Part shown: positions 1,193 through 43,202 of the stretch, in pieces
How positions within the stretch are numbered: position 1 is the first letter of the stretch
How the letters are laid out: each line of letters opens with the position of its first letter
Origin: Escherichia phage slur05
Length of the DNA: 43,900 nucleotides
Reading direction: 5' to 3' (one strand)
Sequence record: NC_028901.1
The notes under the pieces: model-generated
The model's database searches: none
Told to the model about the DNA's origin: nothing
The model's input: only the letters and a program-made list of their open reading frames with translations
Position numbers and translations under genes: made by a program

Positions 1193-1884
1193 CAATCTGG
1201 TCACTGTTTGACGGCAGCGGCTTGATGATTGAGCGTGCGGCTGAGATGGGGCATAAGTGTTATTGCTTCAACTACTCCGAAGCCGATCACGGGTCTTACC
1301 TTGACTACCGGATTTATGGTCGCGGAATCCGGTATCGCAATGAGTTTATCGATCTGGACTTTGTAGACCGTGCGATGAATGGCGATTTCGGTACGCCAGA
1401 TATCATCTATGCGTTTCCTCCGTGCACGGATCTGGCAGTGAGCGGCGCGCCAGCTTTCCCGCGCAAACGTGCAAAAGACCCCGCCTTTCAGCTTAAGGCG
1501 GTGCGCACCGCGAAGATCGCCGCTTACCTGGGTGACTTCTTCGAAGTGCCATATATGATTGAGAATCCGCGCAGTGTGCTTTCCACCCAGTGGCGCAAGC
1601 CGGATCACTCGTTCGACCCGTGGGAGTATGGGGGGTATCTGCCGGAGGATGACGTACACCCGCTCTTCCCGGAATACATCAACGCCCGCGATTCATATCC
1701 GAAGCTGACTTGCTTATGGACCGGCAACGGCTTCCGTATGCCAGAGAAGAAACCTGTTTTCGTTGAAAAAGGGTACTCGAAACAGTATAGTCGCCTCGGT
1801 GGTAAATCCGCTCGTACAAAATTAATCCGCTCACTCACTCCGCGCGGCTTCGCGATAGCGGTTAACGAGGAAAATTTAAAATGA
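1189..1884 (+). CDS. Mini C5-cytosine methyltransferase-like protein (231 aa)
   Basis: ATG overlaps the helicase stop (ATGA). Ordered C5-MTase-like motifs: LFDGSG (motif I), FPPCTD (PC catalytic motif), IENPR (ENV-like), RSLTPRGFA (motif IX-like). Too short to carry a normal target-recognition domain. Confidence 0.45.
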   Translation: MTIWSLFDGSGLMIERAAEMGHKCYCFNYSEADHGSYLDYRIYGRGIRYRNEFIDLDFVDRAMNGDFGTPDIIYAFPPCTDLAVSGAPAFPRKRAKDPAFQLKAVRTAKIAAYLGDFFEVPYMIENPRSVLSTQWRKPDHSFDPWEYGGYLPEDDVHPLFPEYINARDSYPKLTCLWTGNGFRMPEKKPVFVEKGYSKQYSRLGGKSARTKLIRSLTPRGFAIAVNEENLK

Positions 1885-2204
1885 ACGCTACATACGAAAC
1901 CATCGATTTTTCGGTCGCAATGACTAACCAGCTATTCACCTACGACAGCAAAACCGGAGTCATCCGTCTGAAGTCCGCCGGCTGCAAGATTGGCAACATC
2001 AATACTGCCGACGGCGGAACACGTATCGAATGCAACGGAAAGACGCTGTCTGGCGCACGCGTGGCGTGGATTATTGAGACGGGCAATACAATCCCTCCAG
2101 GCTTCGCCGTTGTGTGCCGCCAGCGCACACCAGGGCACTACGGCAACCGAATCAGCAATCTGTATTTGGTAGACGTTGCACGCGACCCTAACTTTTATGC
2201 GTAA
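1881..2204 (+). CDS. HNH_3/homing-endonuclease-like protein, probably degenerate
   Basis: ATG overlaps the previous stop. Pattern IECNGKTLSGARVAWIIETGNTIPPGFAV...GNRISNLYLV resembles HNH_3 proteins, but the expected DH/HN catalytic residues are replaced. Confidence 0.3.
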   Translation: MNATYETIDFSVAMTNQLFTYDSKTGVIRLKSAGCKIGNINTADGGTRIECNGKTLSGARVAWIIETGNTIPPGFAVVCRQRTPGHYGNRISNLYLVDVARDPNFYA

Positions 2205-2238
2205 ATTGGTTGCATAATTAGATTGGTTGCATTATCTT
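2205..2238 (+). promoter_or_regulatory. Promoter-like element: tandem ATTGGTTGCAT boxes, TTGCAT-17-TATCTT
   Basis: ATTGGTTGCAT at 2205-2215 and 2222-2232; -35-like TTGCAT 2210-2215, -10-like TATCTT 2233-2238. Confidence 0.4.
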
Positions 2239-2284
2239 AAGGGTGTCCGGTTGGACGCCCTTTTTAATACCTGGAGACAACACG

Positions 2285-2749
2285 ATGAAAATTTTACAAG
2301 AAGAGAAAAATTACTGGGCCGCGCAATGCCTCGAAGCCCGCGAACAGGCCGAACGTGTTAGCGCGCTGGCGGACACCTACCTGGCGAGCTATGAAGGCGA
2401 GGAGAAGGCGCGCAAGGAATTAGAGGAGCGCTTCGAACTGCTGTATGAGTTGATGGGTATTATGCAGCGCACCGGGTACACAACCTCCGTCGCGCTAAAC
2501 CGCATCACTGCCGAAGGTCTGCGCGAGCATTGCAAACGGGCCGAGGCGTACGTGCGCCCCAAAGGTCGCCAGTCTAAGATCGACCGTAAAGACCTGGTAC
2601 GTATGGCATGGCGCAACCCCACAAACGGCAAATTCTACCCGGATGCGCGCCCTTTAGGTGTGTCGGAGACGCAGCGATTGCAGCGAATCCTGAAAAAAGG
2701 TGACAAGATTGCCCTGTACGCGATAGATCCAGATCATGCAGAAGAGTGA
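2285..2749 (+). CDS. Hypothetical protein (154 aa)
   Basis: ORF with GGAGA 7 nt upstream of ATG 2285; preceded by promoter-like tandem ATTGGTTGCAT boxes; predicted helical/coiled protein. Confidence 0.5.
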   Translation: MKILQEEKNYWAAQCLEAREQAERVSALADTYLASYEGEEKARKELEERFELLYELMGIMQRTGYTTSVALNRITAEGLREHCKRAEAYVRPKGRQSKIDRKDLVRMAWRNPTNGKFYPDARPLGVSETQRLQRILKKGDKIALYAIDPDHAEE

Positions 2750-3245
2750 GCAAAAAGATGGCTGGCGCACGCCGCCAGCTTTATTTAAACCACTGCGTCG
2801 GAAGTACCGATTCCGTTACGATATGGCGGCAAGCGATGCCAACCACCTGCTACCGCGTTACTTCACGGCGGAGCACAGCGCGCTTGATGTGGACTGGGCA
2901 GAGTTGAAAGGGTGGAAGTGGTGCAATCCGCCGTACTCCGATCCGCTGCCGTGGGTAGAGTGCGCTGCGCACGGACGCCGGACCGTCATGCTACTGAATC
3001 AGGACACGTCGACGAAGTGGGCGAAGCTGGCCAGGAAGACTGCAAACCTGATTATTTTGCTGGACTGGCGGATCCGGTTTATACACGCCGTCACCGGTAA
3101 GGTCGGGCCGAGCAACAACAAGTGCCAGCAATTGATAATCTTTGAAGAAGTGCCGCCAAACGGCAGCGCACAAATCGAAATAATGAGCGAAGGTGAATTA
3201 AATGAATATCTTAGTCGTCGACCGAAGTCCTCGCGTCGTGGATGA
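2736..3245 (+). CDS. Phage Dam-family N6-adenine DNA methyltransferase
   Basis: N-terminal WRTPP and the NPPY motif (CNPPYSD) typical of small phage N6-adenine methyltransferases; start overlaps the upstream gene. Confidence 0.65.
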   Translation: MQKSEQKDGWRTPPALFKPLRRKYRFRYDMAASDANHLLPRYFTAEHSALDVDWAELKGWKWCNPPYSDPLPWVECAAHGRRTVMLLNQDTSTKWAKLARKTANLIILLDWRIRFIHAVTGKVGPSNNKCQQLIIFEEVPPNGSAQIEIMSEGELNEYLSRRPKSSRRG

Positions 3246-3423
3246 AATAATTAAACGCTACCAGGTTTTCCCTGGAAATAAAGTAAGGCGCGCAAGCCAA
3301 CCTCATCAATTGCTGGGCCTTGACCTAACTGGCTGGCTTGTCATGACGGCGCGTTGCCATCTTGTGTGCGACGCATTCTCGGCCCGTATTGTACGTGAAA
3401 ATTTAATGGCGGAATTAAAATGA
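3202..3423 (+). CDS. Hypothetical small protein (73 aa)
   Basis: ORF overlapping both neighbours by a few bases, consistent with translational coupling; no recognisable motif. Confidence 0.3.
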   Translation: MNILVVDRSPRVVDEIIKRYQVFPGNKVRRASQPHQLLGLDLTGWLVMTARCHLVCDAFSARIVRENLMAELK

Positions 3424-3890
3424 AACTACTGATTTGCGATTTAGATGGCGTTATCAACGGGTCAAGCAGTGTGCGCGACGACCTAGTTCCGGGGATCAAG
3501 ACTAAATCAACGTTTTGGGCGAAGTGGCATAAGGCCCACGTCCGCGAAGACATTAATTATGACATGCTGCCGTTATTGCGCATGTACGCTAAACAGGGCT
3601 TCGACATTGCGTACCTGTCAAACCGCCAGTCAGATTGCTGGGAGTCAACGAAAGAGCAATTGGATAGATTCCCGAAAGGTCGTCTGTTCTTACGCCATAT
3701 GCTTGATGACACGCCGCCTCCAGAGTACAAGGCCCGTTCCGTATTTGGCCTGGTGTGCTATGCAGAAGTTAACGAACTGGTCATCATTGACGACTGCGCG
3801 AAGAACATCGCCGCCATCAAACGGGCGTGTGAAGAACTGGTCCCGCATATTTATTCTGTGAATCTTGCAAAATTCACTTGCAACCAATAA
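3420..3890 (+). CDS. HAD-superfamily hydrolase/phosphatase-like protein
   Basis: N-terminal DxDGV motif (LICDLDGVING) and a C-terminal aspartate motif (VIIDDCAKN), as in HAD phosphatases. Confidence 0.5.
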   Translation: MKLLICDLDGVINGSSSVRDDLVPGIKTKSTFWAKWHKAHVREDINYDMLPLLRMYAKQGFDIAYLSNRQSDCWESTKEQLDRFPKGRLFLRHMLDDTPPPEYKARSVFGLVCYAEVNELVIIDDCAKNIAAIKRACEELVPHIYSVNLAKFTCNQ

Positions 3891-5119: not shown

Positions 5120-6805
5120 TTATGCTTTAGTCAGTGCCTCGACCGCGACTTTCAAATCAGCTACGGCAGCTTTCAGTTCTGCAATCTCGGCCTTGTTCGC
5201 CTCGTCACGCGCTCTTAACGCTTTAATAGCTGCCAGGCAATCCGCGACAAGCGGGTTTAAGTCTAACGTCATCATCCCCGGCACTTCGTGGTCGTGCACA
5301 TATTCCCTGTCAACCGTTGCCGCTTGCTGTGCAATGATTCCGCGTCGCGTAGATCTCTCCGGTTCGTCAAACGTGTACCGGAACAACTTAAACTCAAGGC
5401 GGTTGATGTTATCCAGTGCCGCTTCCACATTTAAATTGCCCTTAATATCCTTCACACGGGCGTCAGACTTACCAGCATCTTGCACCCGCGACCATGTTTT
5501 CGTTGTGGAGGAGACTTGCGCGTTGCCGGAGTCGTTCCAACGATAGTAGAGCGCTGGCAGCGCGCCGACCATAACCTGTGCGACACGAGAGGGCGTGTAG
5601 GCAGATTGAAATCCTGCTCCGTTTACCGGTGCCCATGTAGGGGTGCTGATCGACTGCGAGAAAAAGCAAGCCTGCGTATTTGGGGGCGCGTATGAGTATT
5701 CAATCCCAAGTCCGTAGTCCCCCGGCTTCACCGCTTCGCACCAGTTCTGCAGCGCACCATTCTCTTTAGTTCTCCAGAAAAAACGGCTTTGACGTGCGGC
5801 GAACTGTACCGCGTAGTTTTCCTCAAACTTAACATGCAGACCCGCCGCCGAAGTACCCTCGATCGGTGATCCGAAGACGGTAGCGAGATAGGTGCTTCCG
5901 TCAACTTCGTTCCAACTTCCGCCAGGTGCGTTGCCGTTAATGCCATAATCCCCAACGCCGATTGCGTTGAGGGTCTGCCGTGCCGCTGATTTGTCAGTGA
6001 GGTCGGTTAGGTTGTTACTTACCTTAGCGTATTGAGACGGGTCAACCTCGTTTTTGAATTGTTCGGCCTCGTTCCTGTACCCCTGAGCGGCATCACGGGC
6101 GGCTTGCGCGTCCGTCTTCGCGGTGTTGGCCTGATCGCGAATAACTCCGGTATCCGTCTTAATTTGGTTGGTCTGGTCCTTGATGGCCTGCGTATCCGTC
6201 TTAATCTGGTTGGTCTGCGTCTTGATGGTATTGGTGGCGTCGTGGATAGCCTGTGTGTCCGTCTTAATCTGGTTGGTGTTGTTGTAGATGACCTGCGCGC
6301 CTTCCTTGAATCCTTTAGCTTCGTTCCTGGAATTCTGCGCGGCTGCTTCCGATGCGGCGGCTTGTTGCTGCAGGTCGCGCATTTCCACTGGGTCGATCTG
6401 TTTCATCAACTGCGACAGGTATCCCCATGACATACCCTGCATCACCTGCCCGTTCGGCAGCGTGACCGTGATTTCTTCAGCGTCGCCGAAGATTGCACGC
6501 CAGTTGTTTTCATCTGCAATCATCAAGCGCAATGCTTTTTGAGCCTGTACGGTAACGCCCATCGTTGCCAGTGACATGGTATCGCGCTTAACACCATCCC
6601 ACGCAAGGCCGGTTGCCGTTGGGCCGTCGAACGGCAACACCAGCGTGAGCGCGGTTGCGCTTTCAATGGACGCGATTGCCACGGTGTATGGGACTTGTCC
6701 TACCACCAGCGTCAAGAAGTCGCCAGCTTTAAACGCAGTAAACGTTGTGCCGACCCCTACTACAGCCTTGCTATTATTCGTTACAGATAGCGTACCCGCT
6801 GCCAT
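5120..6805 (-). CDS. Tail fiber protein
   Basis: 561 aa with Gly/Thr-rich N-terminus, tandem repeats TNQIKTDTQAI(K/H)DQ, C-terminal coiled coil; sits in the tail module with a strong terminator at 5089-5115. Confidence 0.65.
   Translation of the reverse strand: MAAGTLSVTNNSKAVVGVGTTFTAFKAGDFLTLVVGQVPYTVAIASIESATALTLVLPFDGPTATGLAWDGVKRDTMSLATMGVTVQAQKALRLMIADENNWRAIFGDAEEITVTLPNGQVMQGMSWGYLSQLMKQIDPVEMRDLQQQAAASEAAAQNSRNEAKGFKEGAQVIYNNTNQIKTDTQAIHDATNTIKTQTNQIKTDTQAIKDQTNQIKTDTGVIRDQANTAKTDAQAARDAAQGYRNEAEQFKNEVDPSQYAKVSNNLTDLTDKSAARQTLNAIGVGDYGINGNAPGGSWNEVDGSTYLATVFGSPIEGTSAAGLHVKFEENYAVQFAARQSRFFWRTKENGALQNWCEAVKPGDYGLGIEYSYAPPNTQACFFSQSISTPTWAPVNGAGFQSAYTPSRVAQVMVGALPALYYRWNDSGNAQVSSTTKTWSRVQDAGKSDARVKDIKGNLNVEAALDNINRLEFKLFRYTFDEPERSTRRGIIAQQAATVDREYVHDHEVPGMMTLDLNPLVADCLAAIKALRARDEANKAEIAELKAAVADLKVAVEALTKA
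6100..6300 (-). repeat. In-frame tandem repeats (~33 bp units) inside the tail fiber gene
   Basis: Repeated CCGTCTTAATCTGGTTGGTCTG-type units encoding TNQIKTDTQAIxDQ. Confidence 0.6.
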
Positions 6806-6885: not shown

Positions 6886-7107
6886 ATGAAAACTTTAATT
6901 ATGATTTGTGCGGTTCTTTTATCCGGTTGCGCCGTAGAACGCAACAACGGCGATTGCATTACGGTTGCGTACGGTAGCTGCATGTTGTGCTACGTTGATG
7001 GGCAAAAAGTCCCGGCAGGAGATGTGGACATGCGATTCACGGGGCTGTCTTCAGATAGCGACGGCAATTTCTCAGGCACAGTATCAGTTAAATCACGGGA
7101 GTGGTAA
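6886..7107 (+). CDS. Small lipoprotein (73 aa), Cor/Llp-like superinfection-exclusion candidate
   Basis: MKTLIMICAVLLSGC: signal peptide with lipobox LSGC; AGGGGA RBS; opposite strand to the flanking tail genes, with its own promoter-like element. Confidence 0.55.
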   Translation: MKTLIMICAVLLSGCAVERNNGDCITVAYGSCMLCYVDGQKVPAGDVDMRFTGLSSDSDGNFSGTVSVKSREW

Positions 7108-22012: not shown

Positions 22013-22717
22013 TTACTCGTCGTCGCCCATCTTCGCGATGATATCCCCCGCCTGTTTCGTAAGGTCAGTGATACCGAAGCTATGGCCCATAGTGATTTTC
22101 GACTTCACATCTTCGACAACCTGCGTCGGTTTGCTAGGCGCGCCACCGGCTGGCGTGCCAGCCAGGACGGATGCAAAATCGGCGTTATTACGGAACTCTT
22201 TTTCAAGCTCTTCCATAGTCAGCGCGGACGGTTTGCCATCCTGCAAGACACGCACTTTCAAGCTGCCGTCTTCGCCGTCTTCCAGCGTCAGGCGGTCCAT
22301 TACGTGGCGTTGCATGATGCCCGCATTCTTACCGAATAGCTTCGATGCCAGGTCTTTGGCAGCGCTGCCGATGGTTAGGTCGTGGATCTGCTTGCGGTAG
22401 GCTTCGATTTTTCCCGATGTGTCTGCTTCGTGTTTCGCAAACTTATCTTTCCAGGACTTGTCGATTGCTTCGAGGTCGCCATTTTTGCGCGCTGCGGCTT
22501 CCTCTTTCTCTTTCGCAAGGCGCTCAGCTTCGGCGCGGCGTTCAGCTTCTGCTTTCTTCTCGCTCACCAGCTTCGCGTTGTTGTCTTTCAGACCCTTGAT
22601 TTCCGCCTGTACTTCTTCTGCGGTCATGAAAGTTGATTTATACCCGTCGCCATCGGCAACAAAAAGCGCCTTCATACCTTCCGGCAACGCGTCATATTCT
22701 GCTTTAGTAAGTTTCAT
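22013..22717 (-). CDS. Capsid scaffolding protein
   Basis: Start refined to MKLTKAEYDALPEG (GGGGGAT SD); central charged coiled coil (KKAEAERRAEAERLAKEKEEAAARK); upstream of the capsid gene. Confidence 0.65.
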   Translation of the reverse strand: MKLTKAEYDALPEGMKALFVADGDGYKSTFMTAEEVQAEIKGLKDNNAKLVSEKKAEAERRAEAERLAKEKEEAAARKNGDLEAIDKSWKDKFAKHEADTSGKIEAYRKQIHDLTIGSAAKDLASKLFGKNAGIMQRHVMDRLTLEDGEDGSLKVRVLQDGKPSALTMEELEKEFRNNADFASVLAGTPAGGAPSKPTQVVEDVKSKITMGHSFGITDLTKQAGDIIAKMGDDE

Positions 22718-22807
22718 GCTATCCCCCTGGGATTGTGGCAGAGCAGGCCACCCGCTCGACTTCACGCTTCTAATATTATCAGCGATAAAAATAATCGCAA
22801 AATTCGC

Positions 22808-22836
22808 TTGCAATCCTCGTATTGGTTGCATATATT
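22808..22836 (+). promoter_or_regulatory. Sigma70-like promoter TTGCAA-17-TATATT for moron 22866-23630
   Basis: -35 TTGCAA 22808-22813; spacer contains ATTGGTTGCA; -10 TATATT 22831-22836; second ATTGGTTGCA at 22834-22843. Confidence 0.5.
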
Positions 22837-22865
22837 GGTTGCACACCAACAACGAGGACACACTA

Positions 22866-23630
22866 ATGAGACTGACAAAAGACATTAAAAACCAGATTCT
22901 GGCTAACATCCTGCGCGACCATGAAATCGCGACCGAAGCAAAATCCATCATGATGGACTCTCGCGACTTGGCGTACGCCATTACGCTGGACTGTATGCCG
23001 GAAGGCATTCGCACGTTCGCCGAGTTACGCGCATATATCGCAGAAATCCGCGATAACCAGTCGCAGATGTATGGCGTTAGCGTTTACACCGACAAGGCGA
23101 CGTATAGCTATAACTCCGACCGGCCAAAAGGCATCGGCCGCGTTTATAGCGCCGGATTCGATATCAACGCAGGCGGTAATGTTCGCACCGTATCATTGAG
23201 CGGCGATGGATACCGATACCGCCTGCACCGCGGATACTGGGAAGAGAAATATATGAACAAGCTATCTCCCGATCTCGGTGATATCGTACCGGGGTACGAG
23301 GAAGTTATGCTGGCTTCAGTGTGCGAAGTGGACGAGGACGGAAAATCGCTGCCGATATATCTTCCGCGCGGTCGCGTAGACTACCCGGCGGACCATGATT
23401 TCTGTAAGTGCCTGGATCGCAACGACAAGTCCCGCCGCGAGTTGCGAGCTAAGTATGACGCGTTCAAACTAACCGTTACCGGTGTGCTGGATATGCACAA
23501 TACCGATAAGAAGCTGATCAAGGCGTGGCCTGAAGTGGAACAGTTCATTCCTTACCCGGACAAGCCAAAATCCACGGCGGTGGCGCTGGACGTGAAGACG
23601 TTAAACGAAATCTGCGGTATTCAGCGCTAA
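22866..23630 (+). CDS. Hypothetical protein (254 aa), plus-strand moron inside the head module
   Basis: GAGGA RBS; own promoter TTGCAA-17-TATATT (22808-22836); terminator hairpin 23636-23654; opposite strand to all neighbours. Confidence 0.55.
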   Translation: MRLTKDIKNQILANILRDHEIATEAKSIMMDSRDLAYAITLDCMPEGIRTFAELRAYIAEIRDNQSQMYGVSVYTDKATYSYNSDRPKGIGRVYSAGFDINAGGNVRTVSLSGDGYRYRLHRGYWEEKYMNKLSPDLGDIVPGYEEVMLASVCEVDEDGKSLPIYLPRGRVDYPADHDFCKCLDRNDKSRRELRAKYDAFKLTVTGVLDMHNTDKKLIKAWPEVEQFIPYPDKPKSTAVALDVKTLNEICGIQR

Positions 23631-23635
23631 CAAAA

Positions 23636-23660
23636 GGGGGCCATCACAGCCCCCGAATTA
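23636..23660. terminator. Bidirectional terminator between moron 22866-23630 and the spanin genes
   Basis: Stem GGGGGC/GCCCCC with 7 nt loop; T-rich flanks on both strands. Confidence 0.5.
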
Positions 23661-23874
23661 TTTTCTGCAAATCCAGCACTTGCGCCCTTAGCTTCGCGCC
23701 GCATTCCATATTTTTCACGTCAATCATCAAATCTTCGTCGGGGTCCGCAGACGGGTTATCGAACTTGCACGGCGGTCGCAGTGCCGACTCCGTTAGCGGC
23801 ATCAACGGCACGTTGCTTGATCCGCACGCGCTCAGCATCAAAACTACAATCAGGGCGGTTAGGGCGCGTAACAT
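23644..23874 (-). CDS. Outer-membrane lipoprotein, o-spanin (Rz1-like) candidate
   Basis: MLRALTALIVVLMLSACGSS: signal peptide with lipobox LSAC; Pro-rich mature part with Cys; overlaps the 3' end of the i-spanin candidate in another frame. Confidence 0.55.
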   Translation of the reverse strand: MLRALTALIVVLMLSACGSSNVPLMPLTESALRPPCKFDNPSADPDEDLMIDVKNMECGAKLRAQVLDLQKIIRGL

Positions 23875-24085
23875 ATTTAACAACCTCTTTCGTGATAGTC
23901 CGGTATTCTACGTCGCGGGCTTGTTCGGCCTGCACGGAGCGCTCAATAACTTTAGTTTGCTGCCGTTGGGCTTCTGCTTGCGCTTCTTGCGCCGCCTCCG
24001 CCACTACGCCAGCGCGATAGGAGTCACCTAGCCAGAATCCTACCACCAGACCGATAACCAGCCCAATCGCTGCATACTTAATCAC
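23756..24085 (-). CDS. i-spanin (Rz-like) candidate
   Basis: Probable GTG start after a GGGGG SD; N-terminal transmembrane segment (IKYAAIGLVIGLVVGFWLG) then coiled coil (AEAAQEAQAEAQRQQ); classic overlapped Rz/Rz1 arrangement. Confidence 0.5.
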   Translation of the reverse strand: MIKYAAIGLVIGLVVGFWLGDSYRAGVVAEAAQEAQAEAQRQQTKVIERSVQAEQARDVEYRTITKEVVKYVTRPNRPDCSFDAERVRIKQRAVDAANGVGTATAVQVR

Positions 24086-25181
24086 GCCATAACCCCCGGT
24101 TTTTAAGCTGTGCAATAGTCATTAGTTCGCCAGTATCGGTGAACATCTTCGGCACTTTCACGCCGCGCATAATCTGATCGGCGCGCTGCACCCCATATAA
24201 TTCCTCCAGAATATGGCGCGGCTGGCGCTGCACCCATGAGAAGAAATCAGTCTGCGCGTCGACCTGCTCACTCAGCAATCTGCCTGCGTCAGCCTTCAGT
24301 GCCGGACGCTTACCACTGGGCCAATCTTCCATACCTTTGACTTTCCACGTCTCCGTCGAACGGCAGCAATAATGCAGCTTGCCCGGACCAGCGCCATATT
24401 GTGACCCCGCCACCACTTTCCCGCCGCGCTTTCCTTTGGTGTCGGGGGTAACATCAACCGGATAAAACAGGCGATCGCGTAGCTGGCACATGGGAGAAGT
24501 ATGCGTGTCCAATGTAGCCAACCATTGGCGACCTTCGAGAATATCGTCATTAGCTTTTACCATTAATTCGCGGGCGGTCGCCGCATAGTGGTTGACCGCG
24601 GACTTAACAACGCTTGAGATTGCTTGCGCACTACGACCGCCTAGCGCGCGCCTCACATCCGCGATAATTTCCATCGTCGGCTTGCCCTGGATGAATCCAG
24701 CGCGCACCTGATTGCCGATCTGCGTCCTAGTCCACTCGGAAAGTGAATCAGGCCATTGCATCATGGTGTTTCCCTGGAACGGGTTTTTCATTGCAGTCGC
24801 TGCAATCTGCGCGCCCGTAACTACACCCACCACCTCAACCGCTGGTACAGCGACAGCGGGCTGGATCGCTGCCGTTAGTGTGTCCGCGAGATAATCAGCC
24901 TCGGTGTCGGCGAACTCCTGAAGGCTCTCCGCCAGCACTTTAAACTCGGCGCGCAGTTCCGTTTTGACGGTCTTGTCGATTTGGGTTAACAGTGTGGTAA
25001 GTGCCTTGTTGCTCATGGACTTTTTGCCATCAAGTAACTCGGTCAGCTTACCAAGTAAAGTGGGCCGGAACTTCTCCCACATAGCCAGCACCCTCCGCGC
25101 CTGATCATTGCTCAGGCGCTGGGTGAAGATGTGACGGCGAATCATTCGATCCGCCAAATGTTGATTAATTGTCTTCGCCAT
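24078..25181 (-). CDS. Head morphogenesis protein (SPP1 gp7 / Mu F-like)
   Basis: 367 aa after the portal gene; ATLDTHTSPMC motif characteristic of the gp7/MuF minor head protein family. Confidence 0.65.
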   Translation of the reverse strand: MAKTINQHLADRMIRRHIFTQRLSNDQARRVLAMWEKFRPTLLGKLTELLDGKKSMSNKALTTLLTQIDKTVKTELRAEFKVLAESLQEFADTEADYLADTLTAAIQPAVAVPAVEVVGVVTGAQIAATAMKNPFQGNTMMQWPDSLSEWTRTQIGNQVRAGFIQGKPTMEIIADVRRALGGRSAQAISSVVKSAVNHYAATARELMVKANDDILEGRQWLATLDTHTSPMCQLRDRLFYPVDVTPDTKGKRGGKVVAGSQYGAGPGKLHYCCRSTETWKVKGMEDWPSGKRPALKADAGRLLSEQVDAQTDFFSWVQRQPRHILEELYGVQRADQIMRGVKVPKMFTDTGELMTIAQLKNRGLWRD

Positions 25182-26685
25182 TGTCCGCTACCTTGTCCGG
25201 GTCTTCTTCGGTAGATTCTACCGCATCAGGGGACATTTGAGGCAATGGATTCTGATTTCGCAATTCGTCTTCCACCTGCTCGACGGTTTGCGAGTCGTCG
25301 ATGACACCCTGCGCCATCATCCACTTGATGAAGTCAGCCAGGCGGACCGTACCCGTCTGCACACCCGACATCATCGCGGTCATAAGCTGCGCATCAACCG
25401 TGATTTCGGTGTAGAACTTATTCAGCGTCACACGCTGGTCGGCGGTGTCGCCCGTGAATAGCTGGACGATTTGCAGCGCACGGTTGAAAGCCTTCTCGAC
25501 GTTACCGGCGATCAGTGACAGGATACTGTTATCAGTCTGCGCATCGTAGGCCGCTTCCGTTGCCGTCTTAGGTGCGGTCCCCTTCTCGACCAGGGCCGCG
25601 CCAAGTTTAGCCATTTGCAATTCGCGACGCTCACACAGTGCAACAGACAAGTTGCGCTCCTCCGCCTGGATCAGTTTAGCGTCCATGTTCTGGCCCAGGA
25701 TAACGCCCTTAGTCGCACCGAGGGCAATGCCGCCCTTCAGGTTCTTGTCCGCCCATGATTGGGTCAAGCCCGTCGCAACTAGGGTAGGCTGGCCCACGAT
25801 GTGCGCAATCTCGGCGACGTCCGCTTCGGCGTTGTAGTGCTTAATGTTGATGGATGCGATATCCGCCAGCGGAGCGGCGTCAGGCGTTGCGTTGTTGTCC
25901 ACCGCACCGCACCAGCAAAACGGTAGTTGCGTAAGCGCGTTACCGGCAGCATCCACCAGTGGTACAAGGTCGGTTCGGGTGAAGCCGCGCGGCAAGTCCA
26001 TTTGCACCTCGGACGTGTCCGCGTTGTAGTACCAGCGGCGGGCGTGTGCCGCACCGTTAATCATGCGAAGCTCGGTCCAGATTGTTACTTCGTGGTTTGC
26101 GAAGTCGTCCGGGTCTTCGGTGCTGATTTCGTCCGTTTCCTTCAGCACAATTAGCGTATCGACGCCGTTGGTCTGCCGCCAGTTGATGATCTGTTCTGCC
26201 GTGTACAGGCGGATAAGAGGGCGGTGTGACGCCATCTCGGCGGCTGTCTGCGGAACTACGTTACCCAGTTCATCAAAATGCGCCTGGCGATCGTAGTCCA
26301 CCATAAAGCCCGCACGGCCTGATTGCAGCACTTCCGACATAGCACCGCGCAGGAGTTGCGCCAGTGGCATCCCGCTGCCGTCTACGTCATCAATCAGGTC
26401 AGCCATTGCCCCGGAAAGGTCAATACTCACCGGCTTCGCGAAGGCCACGCCTAACAGTGCGTTAAGGGTTCTGGCGGTGGCGTTCAGGAAGACGGCGCGC
26501 TGCTTATACGCCTTATAACGCGCACGCGATTTAGGGTCGGTGGTGTCGCCGCTTGCTGGGTGTGGCAGGTATAATGGGCCGCACGCCTTCACGGCGCGCT
26601 CCCCTGCTACGCAGTCACGGATCATTTTCCACTCTGGCGCGATGCGCGCATAGAGCGGGTGCTGGTTGTCTACGTTAACGGTCAT
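25165..26685 (-). CDS. Portal protein
   Basis: 506 aa between terminase large subunit and the MuF-like gene; acidic C-terminus. Confidence 0.65.
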   Translation of the reverse strand: MTVNVDNQHPLYARIAPEWKMIRDCVAGERAVKACGPLYLPHPASGDTTDPKSRARYKAYKQRAVFLNATARTLNALLGVAFAKPVSIDLSGAMADLIDDVDGSGMPLAQLLRGAMSEVLQSGRAGFMVDYDRQAHFDELGNVVPQTAAEMASHRPLIRLYTAEQIINWRQTNGVDTLIVLKETDEISTEDPDDFANHEVTIWTELRMINGAAHARRWYYNADTSEVQMDLPRGFTRTDLVPLVDAAGNALTQLPFCWCGAVDNNATPDAAPLADIASINIKHYNAEADVAEIAHIVGQPTLVATGLTQSWADKNLKGGIALGATKGVILGQNMDAKLIQAEERNLSVALCERRELQMAKLGAALVEKGTAPKTATEAAYDAQTDNSILSLIAGNVEKAFNRALQIVQLFTGDTADQRVTLNKFYTEITVDAQLMTAMMSGVQTGTVRLADFIKWMMAQGVIDDSQTVEQVEDELRNQNPLPQMSPDAVESTEEDPDKVADNGEDN

Positions 26686-30338: not shown

Positions 30339-30506
30339 TTACGCTGCGGGGCCGGGTTCTTCCGGCGGTGGTGGGCTTGGCAGCTTCGCATCAAAGACCC
30401 CCGCGTGGTTGATAGAGTCCGCGATGATAGCGCGTGCGCCTGGGTCTTCGGTTTTAGCCAGTGCGGCAAGCGCGTCCGCATTATGATCAAGAATACTTTT
30501 TAACAT
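30339..30506 (-). CDS. Hypothetical small protein (55 aa) downstream of endolysin
   Basis: ATG 30506 after a GAGGGGA SD; MLKSILDHNADALAALAKTEDPG...PPPPEEPGPAA; followed by terminator 30305-30333. The longer overlapping ORF (30339-30743) is rejected. Confidence 0.4.
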   Translation of the reverse strand: MLKSILDHNADALAALAKTEDPGARAIIADSINHAGVFDAKLPSPPPPEEPGPAA

Positions 30507-30522: not shown

Positions 30523-31014
30523 TTATGCAGCGTTACGACCGATTCGTTCGGCAACGTCCCACTGCTTACCATCAAACAACGCCTGTCTGCCGATTGCACG
30601 GCGTACCAGACCCTTAAGCACTTCGCCGCCTTGCTTGCGGAACTGCGGCAGCGTAGCACGGACCTTCGCCCAGTCGCCCAAGCGCACCGCGTCGTCGAAG
30701 TCATTGGCAATATGGTCCGGTACGATCGGACCTTGACCTGCATTGATAACCAGGTCCACCAGCGCGTCGAATTGCGCCTGGTTAATGCTATTATGCGCGT
30801 ATTTGTTCACCCAGTCCTCAGCATACGCCACATCGCGCTTAAGTAGCTCCAGCGCTTCCGCGCGGGTAATGCTTCGAGGCGGGTTAGTGCCAGTGTGACC
30901 ATAACCCCAGGTGTACAGGCCGCGGGCCTGCTCTTTCTTAGTCGCGAAATACGGCACCGGGCTAAACGTCTCCCATGCTGCCGTAAATCGTAGACCGTTG
31001 TCACTGAATCGCAT
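30523..31014 (-). CDS. Endolysin (GH24-type lysozyme)
   Basis: 163 aa; GLYTWGYGHTG and the general layout resemble phage lysozymes; adjacent to membrane (holin-like) ORFs. Confidence 0.65.
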   Translation of the reverse strand: MRFSDNGLRFTAAWETFSPVPYFATKKEQARGLYTWGYGHTGTNPPRSITRAEALELLKRDVAYAEDWVNKYAHNSINQAQFDALVDLVINAGQGPIVPDHIANDFDDAVRLGDWAKVRATLPQFRKQGGEVLKGLVRRAIGRQALFDGKQWDVAERIGRNAA

Positions 31015-31246
31015 GTTTTACCCCATTCAAAACAGCATTACGCAGCGTGCGCAATGCAAACAGCCAGATTAACGCGGTCCAGGTGGTGTCAGATACGTCT
31101 CCTGTTTGCAACAATCCGATAACGCAGATCATCGCCGTTAGCAGATATAGCACCCGGCCTAAAATGCCATCCTGGACGGACGGCGCATACACGTTAAACA
31201 GGGACGAAGCCCCGATGATAACAAACAACAGGACGGAGATAATCAT
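31001..31246 (-). CDS. Holin-like small membrane protein
   Basis: Probable start at MIISVLLFVIIG...; 2-3 predicted transmembrane segments; overlaps the endolysin start. Confidence 0.45.
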   Translation of the reverse strand: MIISVLLFVIIGASSLFNVYAPSVQDGILGRVLYLLTAMICVIGLLQTGDVSDTTWTALIWLFALRTLRNAVLNGVKHAIQ

Positions 31247-31532
31247 TTTGCGCCCCCGGAAGTCGGAACGACTCAATAGTCTCCCTGATCCGGGCGGCTA
31301 TTGGCATCCAGAAGATTGCAGTTACGAACCCCAAACCGGCGACAGTGCGCTCACCAGATAAGCCCGCCCACTCGGCAATCGCTGGAGCGCCAAAAACGGC
31401 ACACAAGAAGCCGACCACGATATATAACACGAAGTTTAGCGGCCCTTTCGTAGCCTCGCCATGAATGCGTGCGCCTACGAAGCCGCCAGCCAGACATGCG
31501 AGGGCGAATAACCACTCGTTTAGCTTATCCAT
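31194..31532 (-). CDS. Membrane protein (holin or antiholin candidate)
   Basis: 112 aa with ~3 hydrophobic segments; in the lysis cassette. Confidence 0.45.
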   Translation of the reverse strand: MDKLNEWLFALACLAGGFVGARIHGEATKGPLNFVLYIVVGFLCAVFGAPAIAEWAGLSGERTVAGLGFVTAIFWMPIAARIRETIESFRLPGAQNDYLRPVVCYHRGFVPV

Positions 31533-31584: not shown

Positions 31585-31884
31585 TTAATCGAAAATGGAC
31601 CACTTGCCGACGCCTTTCCACTCCCATCCACTCGACCGGACGGCCTCGAATGTTCGCCCGCCTATCATATCCCGATACCACAGCCACCACATGCGCAACC
31701 TGGTCGGGTGCTCCGTGATCCCGCGGCGCTTGTATACCTCGAACGTCATGCGGGTAATACTGGCGGCTTCCACTGCAGGCCATACGACGAACATCAGGAT
31801 GCCCAACAGCACCGCGGTAAGCAGGCATAGCCCGCAGATCAAACCAAACCAATAAATCACATCATGAATCATAATCTGCCCCAT
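31585..31884 (-). CDS. Membrane protein with N-terminal transmembrane anchor
   Basis: 99 aa; hydrophobic N-terminus (VIYWFGLICGLCLLTAVLLGILMFVVW) then a Trp/Arg-rich soluble domain. Confidence 0.4.
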   Translation of the reverse strand: MGQIMIHDVIYWFGLICGLCLLTAVLLGILMFVVWPAVEAASITRMTFEVYKRRGITEHPTRLRMWWLWYRDMIGGRTFEAVRSSGWEWKGVGKWSIFD

Positions 31885-40914: not shown

Positions 40915-43202
40915 AAGACTTCGAACGTCTGTTTCTCGACACCGAGACATTTAGCGGGGTGGACCTGAAGAAAGTGGGGGCGTACGCCTACGCAGAGCAC
41001 CCAACCACCGAGATTATGATTTGCACCTACGCCATCGACGAAGGCCGCGTGCAGACATGGGATTGCACTGAATCCCCCACAATGCCGCGTGAACTGCGCA
41101 AGGCGCTCCGCCATGTATCCCGCAAGAAAGCAAAAATAGTGATGGCTAACGGCCTCCTGTTTGACCGCCTGGTTATCCGCGAGAAGTGGGGCATCGACCT
41201 GCCGGTAAGCCAGATCGAAGACACCATGATTATGGCCTTTCGCCACGCGCTGCCCGGTAGCCTCGATATGCAGTGCCAGGTGCTGGGCGTTGACGCAGAG
41301 CACGCGAAAGATAAGGCAGGCAAGGCGCTGATTAAACGATTCTGTAAGCCCACCCCTAAGACCTACAAAATCCGCCGCTACACACGCGAGACGCACCCCG
41401 AAGAATGGGCCAAATTCTTGCGCTATGCCGCGCTGGATATTGTTGCCATGCGTGAAGTCTACTGGCGCATACCGGACTGGGGCAACTCACCGAAGGAAGA
41501 TGAAATCCTGCTCATCGACCAGTTGATTAACGACCGCGGCTTCTACGTTGACGTTGACCTGGCGAACGCCGCGATCAAAGCGGTACAGGCGCATAAGGAA
41601 GAATTGAAGGAAGAAGCCTGGGAGCGATTTGGCGGTAAGCTGACAGGCAATGACTTCCTGCCAATCCTGCGTGATATCGCCCCGGCGTTCACGATCCACA
41701 ACGCGCAAAAATCCACGCTTAACGACCTTCTTGAAGACCCGGACTTCCCCGACGAAGGCAAAGCGCTTATCGAAATGCGCCTCGGCGCGTCATCAACGGC
41801 ATCGACTAAATACAATCCGCTCGTTAATGGCCTGTCTGCCGATGGTCGCCGTCGTGGGTGTCTTCAGTACGGCGGCGCAAAGCGCACGCTACGCTGGGCC
41901 GGTAAAGGCTTCCAGCCGCAAAACCTGGCACGCGGCGAGTACAGCGACGACCACGAAGGGAAGATTAAGCGCCGCGAAGGCGAGAGCGACGTCGCTTTTT
42001 GGGTCCGGTCGCACATGCTCACCAACGGCATCAACTCCCTGTTACGCGGGACTGCACACTGGGCGTATGACATATCGAAGTTAACGGCCTCGACCGTTCG
42101 CGGGTGCATTATTCCGGCTAAGGGTAAGAAGTTTGTTGTAGCTGACTATTCTAACGTGGAAGGGCGTGGCCTCGCCTGGATCGCTGGTGAGAAAACCGCG
42201 CTAATGGTGTTTAGGGCCGGTCGCGATATTTATTGTGAAACTGCCGGTAAGATGTTCGGCCTTGACCCGGAATACATTAAAGCCAACCGCAAAGACCTAC
42301 GCCAGATTGGTAAGGCGTGTGAGTTGGGACTTGGCTATGGCGGCGGCGTGGCTGCGTTCTTGCAGTTCGCTAAAAACCTGGGCCTCGACCTTTACGCGAT
42401 GGCGGACGTCATGAAGGGCACATTCCCCGATCACATTTGGGCAGCGGCTAAACGGGGTTATGAGTACGCCCGCATTAACGAAGCGAAGCGACCGCCGAAG
42501 CCGGGCAAGAAGGACGAGCGCCCGACTTACATACTGCCTAAAAACGTTTGGCTGACCTGCGACGCGATCAAACGCATGTGGCGTGAGGCCCACCCGAAGA
42601 CGGTAGCCTTTTGGGCCGAGCTTGAGGACGCGGTGTTGTGTGCAATCCGCAATCCTGGCAAAGCGTACTGGGCTGGCGCGAACGTTCGCCCGGATGGTAA
42701 GAAAGCGCTCAAGATAGTCCGCACGAAGGCGAAGCATGACCCAACCTTCGACGAGGAACGCGACGACCCGAACGCCGCGGGGTGGTGGTTGAAAATTGAG
42801 TTGCCGTCGGGGCGTATTATGAGTTATCCGGGCATTGCGCTGTCTGTCACTACCGAGATCGACGAAGATACTGGCAAGAAACGCACCAGCACCCGCATTA
42901 AATATCAGGGCGAGAATCAGACGACCCGCCAGTGGGGCTTCCAGTACACCTACGGCGGCAAACTCACGGAAAACATCGTACAGGCGCTGTGTCGCGATAT
43001 CCTCGCATGGTCCATGCCTGGCGTTGAAGCTGCGGGATATGAGATCGTACTGTCCGTACACGATGAACTGATAACCGAAGTGCCGGATACTGACGACTAC
43101 ACAACCGAGGAGTTGTGCGCGCTGATGTGCGACCTGCCTGTTTGGGCGAAAGGCTTCCCGCTTGCCGCGGAAGGCGACATTATGTACAGGTACAGGAAGT
43201 AA
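40911..43202 (+). CDS. Family A DNA polymerase with N-terminal 3'-5' exonuclease domain
   Basis: Exo motif LFLDTETFS; polymerase motif A DYSNVEGRGLAWIAGE, motif B RQIGKACELGLGYGGG, motif C LSVHDEL. Confidence 0.85.
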   Translation: MKDFERLFLDTETFSGVDLKKVGAYAYAEHPTTEIMICTYAIDEGRVQTWDCTESPTMPRELRKALRHVSRKKAKIVMANGLLFDRLVIREKWGIDLPVSQIEDTMIMAFRHALPGSLDMQCQVLGVDAEHAKDKAGKALIKRFCKPTPKTYKIRRYTRETHPEEWAKFLRYAALDIVAMREVYWRIPDWGNSPKEDEILLIDQLINDRGFYVDVDLANAAIKAVQAHKEELKEEAWERFGGKLTGNDFLPILRDIAPAFTIHNAQKSTLNDLLEDPDFPDEGKALIEMRLGASSTASTKYNPLVNGLSADGRRRGCLQYGGAKRTLRWAGKGFQPQNLARGEYSDDHEGKIKRREGESDVAFWVRSHMLTNGINSLLRGTAHWAYDISKLTASTVRGCIIPAKGKKFVVADYSNVEGRGLAWIAGEKTALMVFRAGRDIYCETAGKMFGLDPEYIKANRKDLRQIGKACELGLGYGGGVAAFLQFAKNLGLDLYAMADVMKGTFPDHIWAAAKRGYEYARINEAKRPPKPGKKDERPTYILPKNVWLTCDAIKRMWREAHPKTVAFWAELEDAVLCAIRNPGKAYWAGANVRPDGKKALKIVRTKAKHDPTFDEERDDPNAAGWWLKIELPSGRIMSYPGIALSVTTEIDEDTGKKRTSTRIKYQGENQTTRQWGFQYTYGGKLTENIVQALCRDILAWSMPGVEAAGYEIVLSVHDELITEVPDTDDYTTEELCALMCDLPVWAKGFPLAAEGDIMYRYRK

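Follow-up and report, generated by a model that had tools for sequence, protein, structure and literature searches.

Between positions 23644 and 24085 of the 43,900-nucleotide stretch of DNA analysed here (the window), two overlapping minus-strand ORFs, one for a small membrane protein and one for a small lipoprotein, are lodged among the genes for packaging and head formation, and their presence raises the question of what such a pair does there. A first-pass annotation had placed the ORFs at 23756–24085 and 23644–23874, where both are indeed found, and had read them as an overlapped spanin pair in the head module, apart from the endolysin and holin genes. We arrive at the same reading: the ORFs most probably encode the two-component spanin of a Dhillonvirus phage and belong to the “Jersey” overlapped family (probability about 0.9). 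Homology, anatomy and gene context are the grounds on which this putative function rests, through matches to PHROG profiles, the annotation of relatives, the listing of close relatives in a published catalogue, codon-position variation and a lambdoid contig in which a pair of the same family stands with lysis genes. The genes, their architecture and their location are already known, being tabulated in Kongari 2018 and annotated in sister genomes.

The frame of the lipoprotein gene (o-spanin, Rz1-like) is +1 relative to that of the membrane protein gene (i-spanin, Rz-like), and the positions of both genes and their signals are collected in Table 1. As the o-spanin gene continues 112 nt beyond the i-spanin stop, the pair is of the “overlapped”, P2-like class and not of the “embedded”, lambda-like class, as Kongari 2018 (PMC6139136) defines them. 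The initial description of an embedded lipoprotein gene in the classic Rz/Rz1 architecture must accordingly be replaced by an arrangement like that of P2 lysB/lysC. At the upstream end, the TAA stop of a MuF-like head morphogenesis gene (24078–24080) overlaps the i-spanin start (junction GTGATTAA), an overlap that suggests co-transcription and translational coupling. At the downstream end, the o-spanin TGA stop lies in the loop of a hairpin situated 5 nt after the stop of nmad5, the convergent gene; this hairpin probably serves as the terminator of the spanin transcript and is possibly bidirectional.

Table 1. Positions in the window of the spanin gene pair, its signals and the other genes considered.
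Feature	Position	Strand	Basis and details
i-spanin (Rz-like) gene	23756–24085	-	GTG start, 109 aa; ORF read from sequence, phrog_2536 match
o-spanin (Rz1-like) gene	23644–23874	-	ATG start; 76-aa lipoprotein precursor, 60-aa mature protein
Dual-coding overlap of i-spanin and o-spanin	23756–23874	-	119 nt; coordinates and mixed codon-position variation
i-spanin Shine-Dalgarno GGGGG	24093–24097	-	7 nt upstream of GTG, within 3´ end of MuF-like gene
o-spanin Shine-Dalgarno GAGG	23884–23887	-	9 nt upstream of ATG, within i-spanin gene
Predicted inner-membrane anchor, i-spanin codons 4–20 (YAAIGLVIGLVVGFWLG)	24026–24076	-	Hydropathy; inside modelled helix 4–72
o-spanin signal peptide and lipobox (MLRALTALIVVLM-LSAC)	23824–23874	-	Lipobox regular expression and hydropathy
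G+C-rich hairpin, then TTTTG	23636–23654	.	Terminator scan of both strands; RNA fold -20.1 kcal/mol, z = -2.05
MuF-like head morphogenesis gene	24078–25181	-	phrog_241, 6.8e-117; Pfam Phage_Mu_F weakly (0.19)
Endolysin	30523–31014	-	phrog_7, 9e-35; record label “Phage lysozyme”
Two holin genes upstream of endolysin	31001–31246, 31194–31532	-	phrog_2508, 1e-26, and phrog_2359, 1.6e-32; GenBank version of the latter gene is 31243–31532
Small ORFs flanking lysis genes	30339–30506, 31585–31884		phrog_11068 and phrog_2531
Second credible lipoprotein ORF, beside tail fibre gene	6886–7107		Lipobox LSGC; weak Cor-type match

By the criteria of Summer 2007 and Kongari 2018, the i-spanin has the anatomy of its class: one predicted transmembrane helix at the N terminus and, also by prediction, a periplasmic domain that is largely helical. 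Its one hydrophobic stretch covers residues 5–19 (Kyte-Doolittle mean 2.49 at the peak of a 15-residue window), and the remainder is polar and mostly helical. A single-sequence AlphaFold2 model of low confidence (pLDDT 62), used for secondary structure alone, gives a helix at 4–72, a linker with Pro and Cys, a helix at 84–97 and a loose tail. The short subfamily of Jersey i-spanins is described as two helices and a linker with one predicted strand, followed by a variable C-terminal tail (PMC6139136), and the orthologue in HK578 is 51% helix by Jpred (Kongari 2018 Table S2, PMC6139136). The single cysteine, C80, is conserved and falls in the predicted periplasmic helix-linker-helix domain. A search of PDB sequences with the i-spanin as query returned no meaningful match. 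The protein had first been described as having an N-terminal membrane anchor and a coiled coil. The anchor is supported by hydropathy; the coiled coil is not confirmed, since the modelled helix is long but heptad counting gives a weak pattern with no convincing coiled-coil register, and the Pepcoil results in Kongari 2018 (PMC6139136) are zero for the orthologue in HK578 (Table S3) and show no coiled coil for the i-spanins of the short subfamily.

The o-spanin precursor starts with a signal peptide, MLRALTALIVVLMLSA, that ends directly before a cysteine, Cys17, predicted to be the lipidated first residue of the mature protein. Pattern matching and hydropathy both show what is expected of an o-spanin, a signal peptidase II signal and a lipobox without Asp at +2. 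The residue at +2 is Gly, which fits with sorting to the outer membrane. The mature part of 60 aa contains six Pro and two further Cys (C36 and C59), so that the initial description of a lipoprotein with lipobox LSAC, Pro and Cys is upheld. Hydropathy reveals no second hydrophobic stretch in the o-spanin, such as the C-terminal transmembrane helix that a unimolecular spanin of the T1 gp11 type would have besides its N-terminal lipobox. Together with C80 of the i-spanin, C36 and C59 provide predicted candidates for periplasmic disulfides. When all six frames of the window were scanned with a relaxed lipobox pattern, only three loci emerged, which makes chance an unlikely explanation of the o-spanin lipobox ORF.

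Both proteins are similar to the partners of the Jersey overlapped spanin family (PHROG 2536 with PHROG 5672/1267). Spanin-specific profiles had been proposed as a check of the first reading, and the PHROG profiles labelled Rz-like spanin are matched by the i-spanin (phrog_2536, 3e-36) and by the o-spanin (phrog_5672, 6e-26, and phrog_1267, 5e-12). Scans of both proteins against Pfam at E<=1 returned DUF7904 (0.069) and an LptM match in the signal region (0.29) but no spanin family, and NCBIfam gave no spanin match; homology to lambda Rz or Rz1 is thus not demonstrable. Phage records matched by tblastn number 665 for the i-spanin and 649 for the o-spanin, 588 of the latter over at least 80% of the protein. 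The matches are mainly to Dhillonvirus, Jerseyvirus and Kagunavirus, with a few Klebsiella, Serratia and other phages, and many of the matched records carry the label spanin, i-spanin or o-spanin. At the nucleotide level, megablast of 22400–25200 identifies LN881731.1 (slur06, a Dhillonvirus) with 100% identity over 2.8 kb and 156 other records at 90–99%, nearly all of them Dhillonvirus Escherichia phages; across 15.1 kb compared, LN881731.1 differs from the window by one single-base indel. The same search against 5,426 complete E. coli genomes gave no match to the locus, which argues for the genome of a virulent phage and against a prophage; a prophage remnant was ruled out on this ground.

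The annotation of these relatives is uneven. In LN881731.1 the i-spanin CDS is “hypothetical” and the o-spanin CDS is absent, a common failure of gene calling given that 196 o-spanins of the survey set in Kongari 2018 were wholly unannotated (PMC6139136). At the identical position in the BASEL phages KarlBarth (Bas17) and JohannBuxtorf_Bas84, the genes are annotated as i-spanin and o-spanin or “Rz-like spanin”. In the published catalogue, both partners from HK578, JL1, EK99P-1, EP23, SSL-2009a and SO-1 are placed in the Jersey overlapped two-component family (Kongari 2018, PMC6139136). The i-spanins of HK578, JL1 and EK99P-1 are listed with 109 aa, a start of MIKYAAIGL and the RBS “aaaaccGGGGGttatggc” (Kongari 2018 Table S1, PMC6139136), and their o-spanins with 76 aa and an overlap of 119 nt (Kongari 2018 Table S4, PMC6139136). 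The i-spanin of HK578 carries the locus tag HK578_005 (Kongari 2018, PMC6139136), consistent with the fifth gene after those for the small terminase, large terminase, portal and MuF proteins. The o-spanin cysteines are conserved in the short Jersey subfamily (Kongari 2018, PMC6139136).

That both frames are coding is best judged from their variation. The pair was compared with 16 other Dhillonvirus loci of 81–97% nucleotide identity, of which two came from annotated phage records and 14 from IMG/VR contigs, the latter including those corresponding to HK578 and EK99P-1. Both ORFs are open in all 16 loci, with conserved GTG and ATG starts, every one has a lipobox of the form [LM][ST]AC, and Cys80 of the i-spanin and Cys17, Cys36 and Cys59 of the o-spanin are invariant (16/16 each). 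Upstream of the overlap, the variable columns at positions 1/2/3 of the i-spanin frame number 23/12/45 (p=3e-8); downstream of it, those of the o-spanin frame number 13/5/23 (p=1e-4). The non-overlapping parts thus vary mostly at their own third positions, which points to purifying selection on both frames. Inside the 119-nt overlap, the count in the i-spanin frame is 17/6/16 (p=0.013), and such mixed variation is the expectation for dual coding. Both frames appear to be translated, and these comparative data agree with the first-pass annotation in treating the lipoprotein frame as a real coding frame.

The location of the pair needs a separate account. Directly after the MuF-like gene and 6.4 kb from the holin-holin-endolysin cluster, with packaging and head genes between, the pair lies in the head module much as first reported (about 6.5 kb from the endolysin). 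A place in a lysis cassette, which is usual for spanins rather than defining, is not what is found. The MuF-like neighbour given initially is matched by phrog_241; the plus-strand neighbour, called a moron, is not well described by that term, since it encodes an Nmad5 domain and is found at the same position in both related phages checked. Nor does the implied unusualness of the location stand up, since all three of the related groups looked at have it too and T4 already offers an example of unlinked spanins. The order in Kagunavirus Shashou, Jerseyvirus S532 and Serratia phage Smarc3 is TerL, portal, MuF, none to two small genes, i-/o-spanin and scaffold; the pair is annotated as i-/o-spanin in all three, and holin and endolysin are elsewhere. 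Jerseyvirus SeF1 has the same PHROGs at gp009/gp010 and its holins and endolysin at gp063–065 (PMC9409062). The separation of spanin from other lysis genes is therefore common to several related phage groups and not peculiar to one genome. The literature searched for this head-module location in Dhillonvirus and Guernseyvirinae yielded annotations and catalogue entries and no experiment.

A contextual argument for a role in lysis, which the Dhillonvirus genome itself cannot give, comes from the IMG/VR lambdoid contig L022. It carries members of both PHROG families, the i-spanin 40% and the o-spanin 35% identical to those of the window, and there the pair ends a cassette of Q, holin, holin and endolysin, with the small terminase gene next. 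In the window, the pair at 23644–24085 is the only spanin candidate found when the ORFs flanking the lysis genes were inspected and the lipobox scan was taken into account. No spanin follows the endolysin in the window, nor in KarlBarth and Bas84, which share the order holin, holin, endolysin. The ORFs flanking the endolysin were searched for a second spanin and have no lipobox, and the 55-aa ORF after the endolysin is without membrane or lipoprotein signal. The lipobox scan brought up two loci besides the o-spanin. The first, at 6886–7107, has neither a C-terminal membrane helix nor a second hydrophobic stretch; as a unimolecular spanin it was rejected for lack of that helix and for its likeness to Cor, and it is more likely a superinfection-exclusion lipoprotein. 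The second, at 41889–42014 (41 aa), was set aside as probable noise.

The mechanism by which lambda Rz and Rz1 act is well established, and we borrow it here to infer, for the pair in the window, the membrane topology, lipidation and assembly of the two products and their part in lysis. An N-terminal helix would hold the 109-aa product in the inner membrane, from which its mostly helical remainder would reach into the periplasm. The lipoprotein pathway would process the 76-aa product, cutting it and attaching lipid at Cys17, and would deliver it to the outer membrane's inner leaflet. Binding between the C-terminal parts of the two proteins would then give complexes that span the periplasm, probably stabilized by disulfides through the conserved cysteines and probably containing disulfide-linked dimers. 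Such complexes would be trapped in the peptidoglycan mesh until the wall is destroyed by the holins and endolysin encoded 6.4 kb away, upon which they would join the inner and outer membranes, break the outer membrane and complete lysis.

Expression can be sketched as well. To judge from the sequence, the pair would share a late transcript with the genes for terminase, portal and MuF; the i-spanin would be translationally coupled to MuF through the overlap of start and stop, the o-spanin would be translated from its own RBS inside the i-spanin gene, and the transcript would probably end at the hairpin by the o-spanin stop. Because spanins are harmless until the wall has been removed, they need not be encoded beside the holins and endolysin, and because they are inert until then, late expression from a structural operon is compatible with their role. 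One intriguing, if rather doubtful, extension is that placement in the head block, with the start overlapping the MuF stop and a like arrangement in Dhillonvirus, Kagunavirus, Jerseyvirus and a Serratia phage, might be more than a neutral accident and could set the dose and timing of the spanin from the structural late operon, independently of holin and endolysin, and that the short i-spanin, having no predicted coiled coil, could use a variant of the lambda fusion mechanism.

Three other explanations have to be weighed, which even jointly we consider unlikely. One is that the lipoprotein serves, together with the membrane protein or by itself, to exclude superinfection or block a receptor in the manner of Cor or Llp, and that its place among virion genes reflects a role at the envelope during infection rather than in lysis. 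The distance from holin and endolysin genes would suit such a factor, but in L022 a pair of the same PHROGs does end a canonical cassette of Q, holin, holin and endolysin. Small exclusion lipoproteins do exist in phages, and the genome has a second lipoprotein gene, with a weak Cor match, at 6886–7107; yet this same gene already takes the exclusion slot beside the tail fibre, and the genome would otherwise be without any spanin candidate. The papers searched contained no experimental test of any member of the Jersey spanin family, lysis experiments included, which leaves some room for an exclusion role; against it, the lipoprotein gene never stands alone: in the +1 frame it accompanies that of a membrane protein with a single N-terminal helix, and this is the signature of spanins. 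We regard an exclusion factor as very improbable.

A second explanation, to which we attach just as little credence, accepts the pair as a spanin by descent and holds that it is dispensable or decaying, the outer membrane being disrupted in some other way, for instance through shear or a further small protein encoded near the endolysin. In lambda, Rz and Rz1 are dispensable in shaken cultures without divalent cations, and two small ORFs (phrog_11068 and phrog_2531) flanking the lysis genes could be thought of as substitutes. Decay is hard to reconcile with the purifying selection on both frames, with the fact that disrupted copies are found in none of the 16 related loci and with the retention of the pair in this place by those Kagunavirus, Jerseyvirus and Serratia phages that were checked, and the 55-aa ORF after the endolysin lacks membrane and lipoprotein signals. 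The least probable explanation, that only the 109-aa ORF is real and the 76-aa lipobox ORF an open +1 frame by chance, could appeal to the slur06 record without an o-spanin CDS and to several related records in which the area is labelled only “hypothetical protein”, but such omission is typical (Kongari 2018, PMC6139136), the 112 nt beyond the i-spanin vary at o-spanin third positions, the ATG, lipobox motif and three cysteines are kept in the 16 related loci, and the PHROG match is joined by tblastn identities of 34–48% in Jerseyvirus, Kagunavirus and Serratia phages.

The preferred reading, a two-component Jersey-family spanin, has as its practical outcome a correction to the annotation of slur06 and has little significance beyond annotation. 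Many Dhillonvirus records list the i-spanin as “hypothetical” and omit the o-spanin, and a reader of these could think that a spanin is absent. For the use of Dhillonvirus phages in therapy or engineering, it is relevant that the lysis system is split, with holin, holin and endolysin at 30.5–31.5 kb and the spanins at 23.6–24.1 kb of the window. The locus is also a further example of spanin genes unlinked to a lysis cassette, a situation established for T4 and implicit in published catalogues for the Jersey family.

Among known systems, the closest are the spanins of HK578 and EK99P-1, orthologues at 95–96% protein identity. HK578, JL1 and EK99P-1 share with the window proteins of 109 and 76 aa, the GTG start, the GGGGG RBS, the 119-nt overlap and the place after a MuF-like gene, and the short Jersey subfamily differs from the pair by a few substitutions and otherwise in nothing of substance. 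More distant are the pairs of Jerseyvirus and Kagunavirus (Jersey, SETP3, K1G, Shashou) and of Smarc3, which have the same PHROGs and the overlapped +1-frame layout. Their i-spanins are 38–59% identical to that of the window over the conserved C-terminal half, and their o-spanins are 39–46% identical to the window o-spanin. The i-spanins of these relatives are longer, at 125–128 aa in three records checked, and they contain polyQ stretches and a coiled coil by prediction; between MuF and the spanins stand one or two additional small genes, nmad5 does not follow, and the overlap in Jersey is 155 nt, compared with 119 nt here.

Lambda Rz/Rz1 is of the same functional class and is presumed to work by the same mechanism. 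It shares with the pair in the window an inner-membrane protein with an N-terminal helix, a small Pro-containing outer-membrane lipoprotein in the +1 frame and periplasmic cysteines, but lambda Rz1 lies wholly inside Rz and the genes end the lysis cassette, whereas the genes in the window are only overlapped and lie 6.4 kb away. P2 LysB/LysC is the prototype of the overlapped layout, in which the o-spanin gene begins within that of the i-spanin and extends past its end, and the P2 spanin genes are part of a lysis cluster. P2 and Jersey are separate families of overlapped spanins (Kongari 2018, PMC6139136). The likeness to T4 is one of location, since the spanin genes PseT.3/PseT.2 are also found away from those for holin and endolysin (Kongari 2018 Fig. 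8 legend, PMC6139136). The T4 genes are of the “separated” class, belong to another family and are not part of a head-gene operon, whereas those of the window are overlapped and sit within the head block.

In several public records the spanin pair, an i-spanin gene with an overlapping o-spanin gene, is incompletely described. The deposited slur06 annotation (GenBank LN881731.1) lacks an o-spanin CDS, and its i-spanin is entered as "hypothetical protein"; several further Dhillonvirus records share both the omission and the label, and in one Jerseyvirus record, S532, the i- and o-spanin labels are interchanged. The neighboring gene, taken for a plus-strand moron in the first-pass annotation, lies on the plus strand and is an Nmad5-domain gene. 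It faces the spanin pair in convergent orientation, antisense to the late operon, and the related Dhillonvirus phages KarlBarth (Bas17) and JohannBuxtorf (Bas84) also carry nmad5 at this position. A single missense change in nmad5, K216E or K296E, suffices for escape of a Dhillonvirus phage from Tmn defence, and deletion of the gene gives no escape (2025, PMC11846954). Lys216 is present in the window (codon 23511-23513).

Features in and around the spanin pair, the lysis cluster and the tail fibre gene
Feature	Position	Strand	Match or description
Second lipoprotein gene	6886-7107	+	73 aa; MKTLIMICAVLLSG followed by C; phrog_4281, 1.4e-32
Tail fibre gene	5120-6805	-	
Sigma-70-like promoter	22808-22836		sequence match
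Nmad5-domain gene	22866-23630	+	Pfam PF18757, 9.5e-55
o-spanin	23644-23874	-	PHROG 5672
i-spanin	23756-24085	-	PHROG 2536
Conserved small ORF	30339-30506	-	55 aa, acidic, Pro-rich; phrog_11068
First holin gene	31194-31532	-	
Conserved small ORF	31585-31884	-	99 aa, N-terminal hydrophobic stretch; phrog_2531

The lysis cluster, two holin genes and the endolysin gene, is flanked by a conserved small ORF upstream of the holins (phrog_2531), and another lies just downstream of the endolysin (phrog_11068); neither contains a lipobox. Within the first holin gene, a run of G residues on the coding (minus) strand at 31253-31258 has five G in the window and six in LN881731.1, KarlBarth and Bas84, the sole difference between the window and LN881731.1 in the 15.1 kb compared. 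The five-G run changes the C-terminus from …LPGGAK* to …LPGAQNDYL…, lengthens the protein from 96 to 112 aa and abolishes the ATGA junction between the two holin genes. The discrepancy probably stems from homopolymer sequencing or from a different sequence version, not from a biological change.

The second lipoprotein gene adjoins the tail fibre gene. Its product shows a weak match (0.0015) to the Cor superinfection exclusion family and probably serves as an exclusion lipoprotein that blocks the receptor.

A lambdoid IMG/VR contig (IMGVR_UViG_3300011800_000008) carries, at 1721-3457, a Q antiterminator, two holins, a glycoside hydrolase 19-like endolysin and an overlapped spanin pair, followed by the small terminase. 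This pair and that of the window share their PHROGs (2536 and 5672), and the spanin family is thus found both within and outside lysis cassettes.
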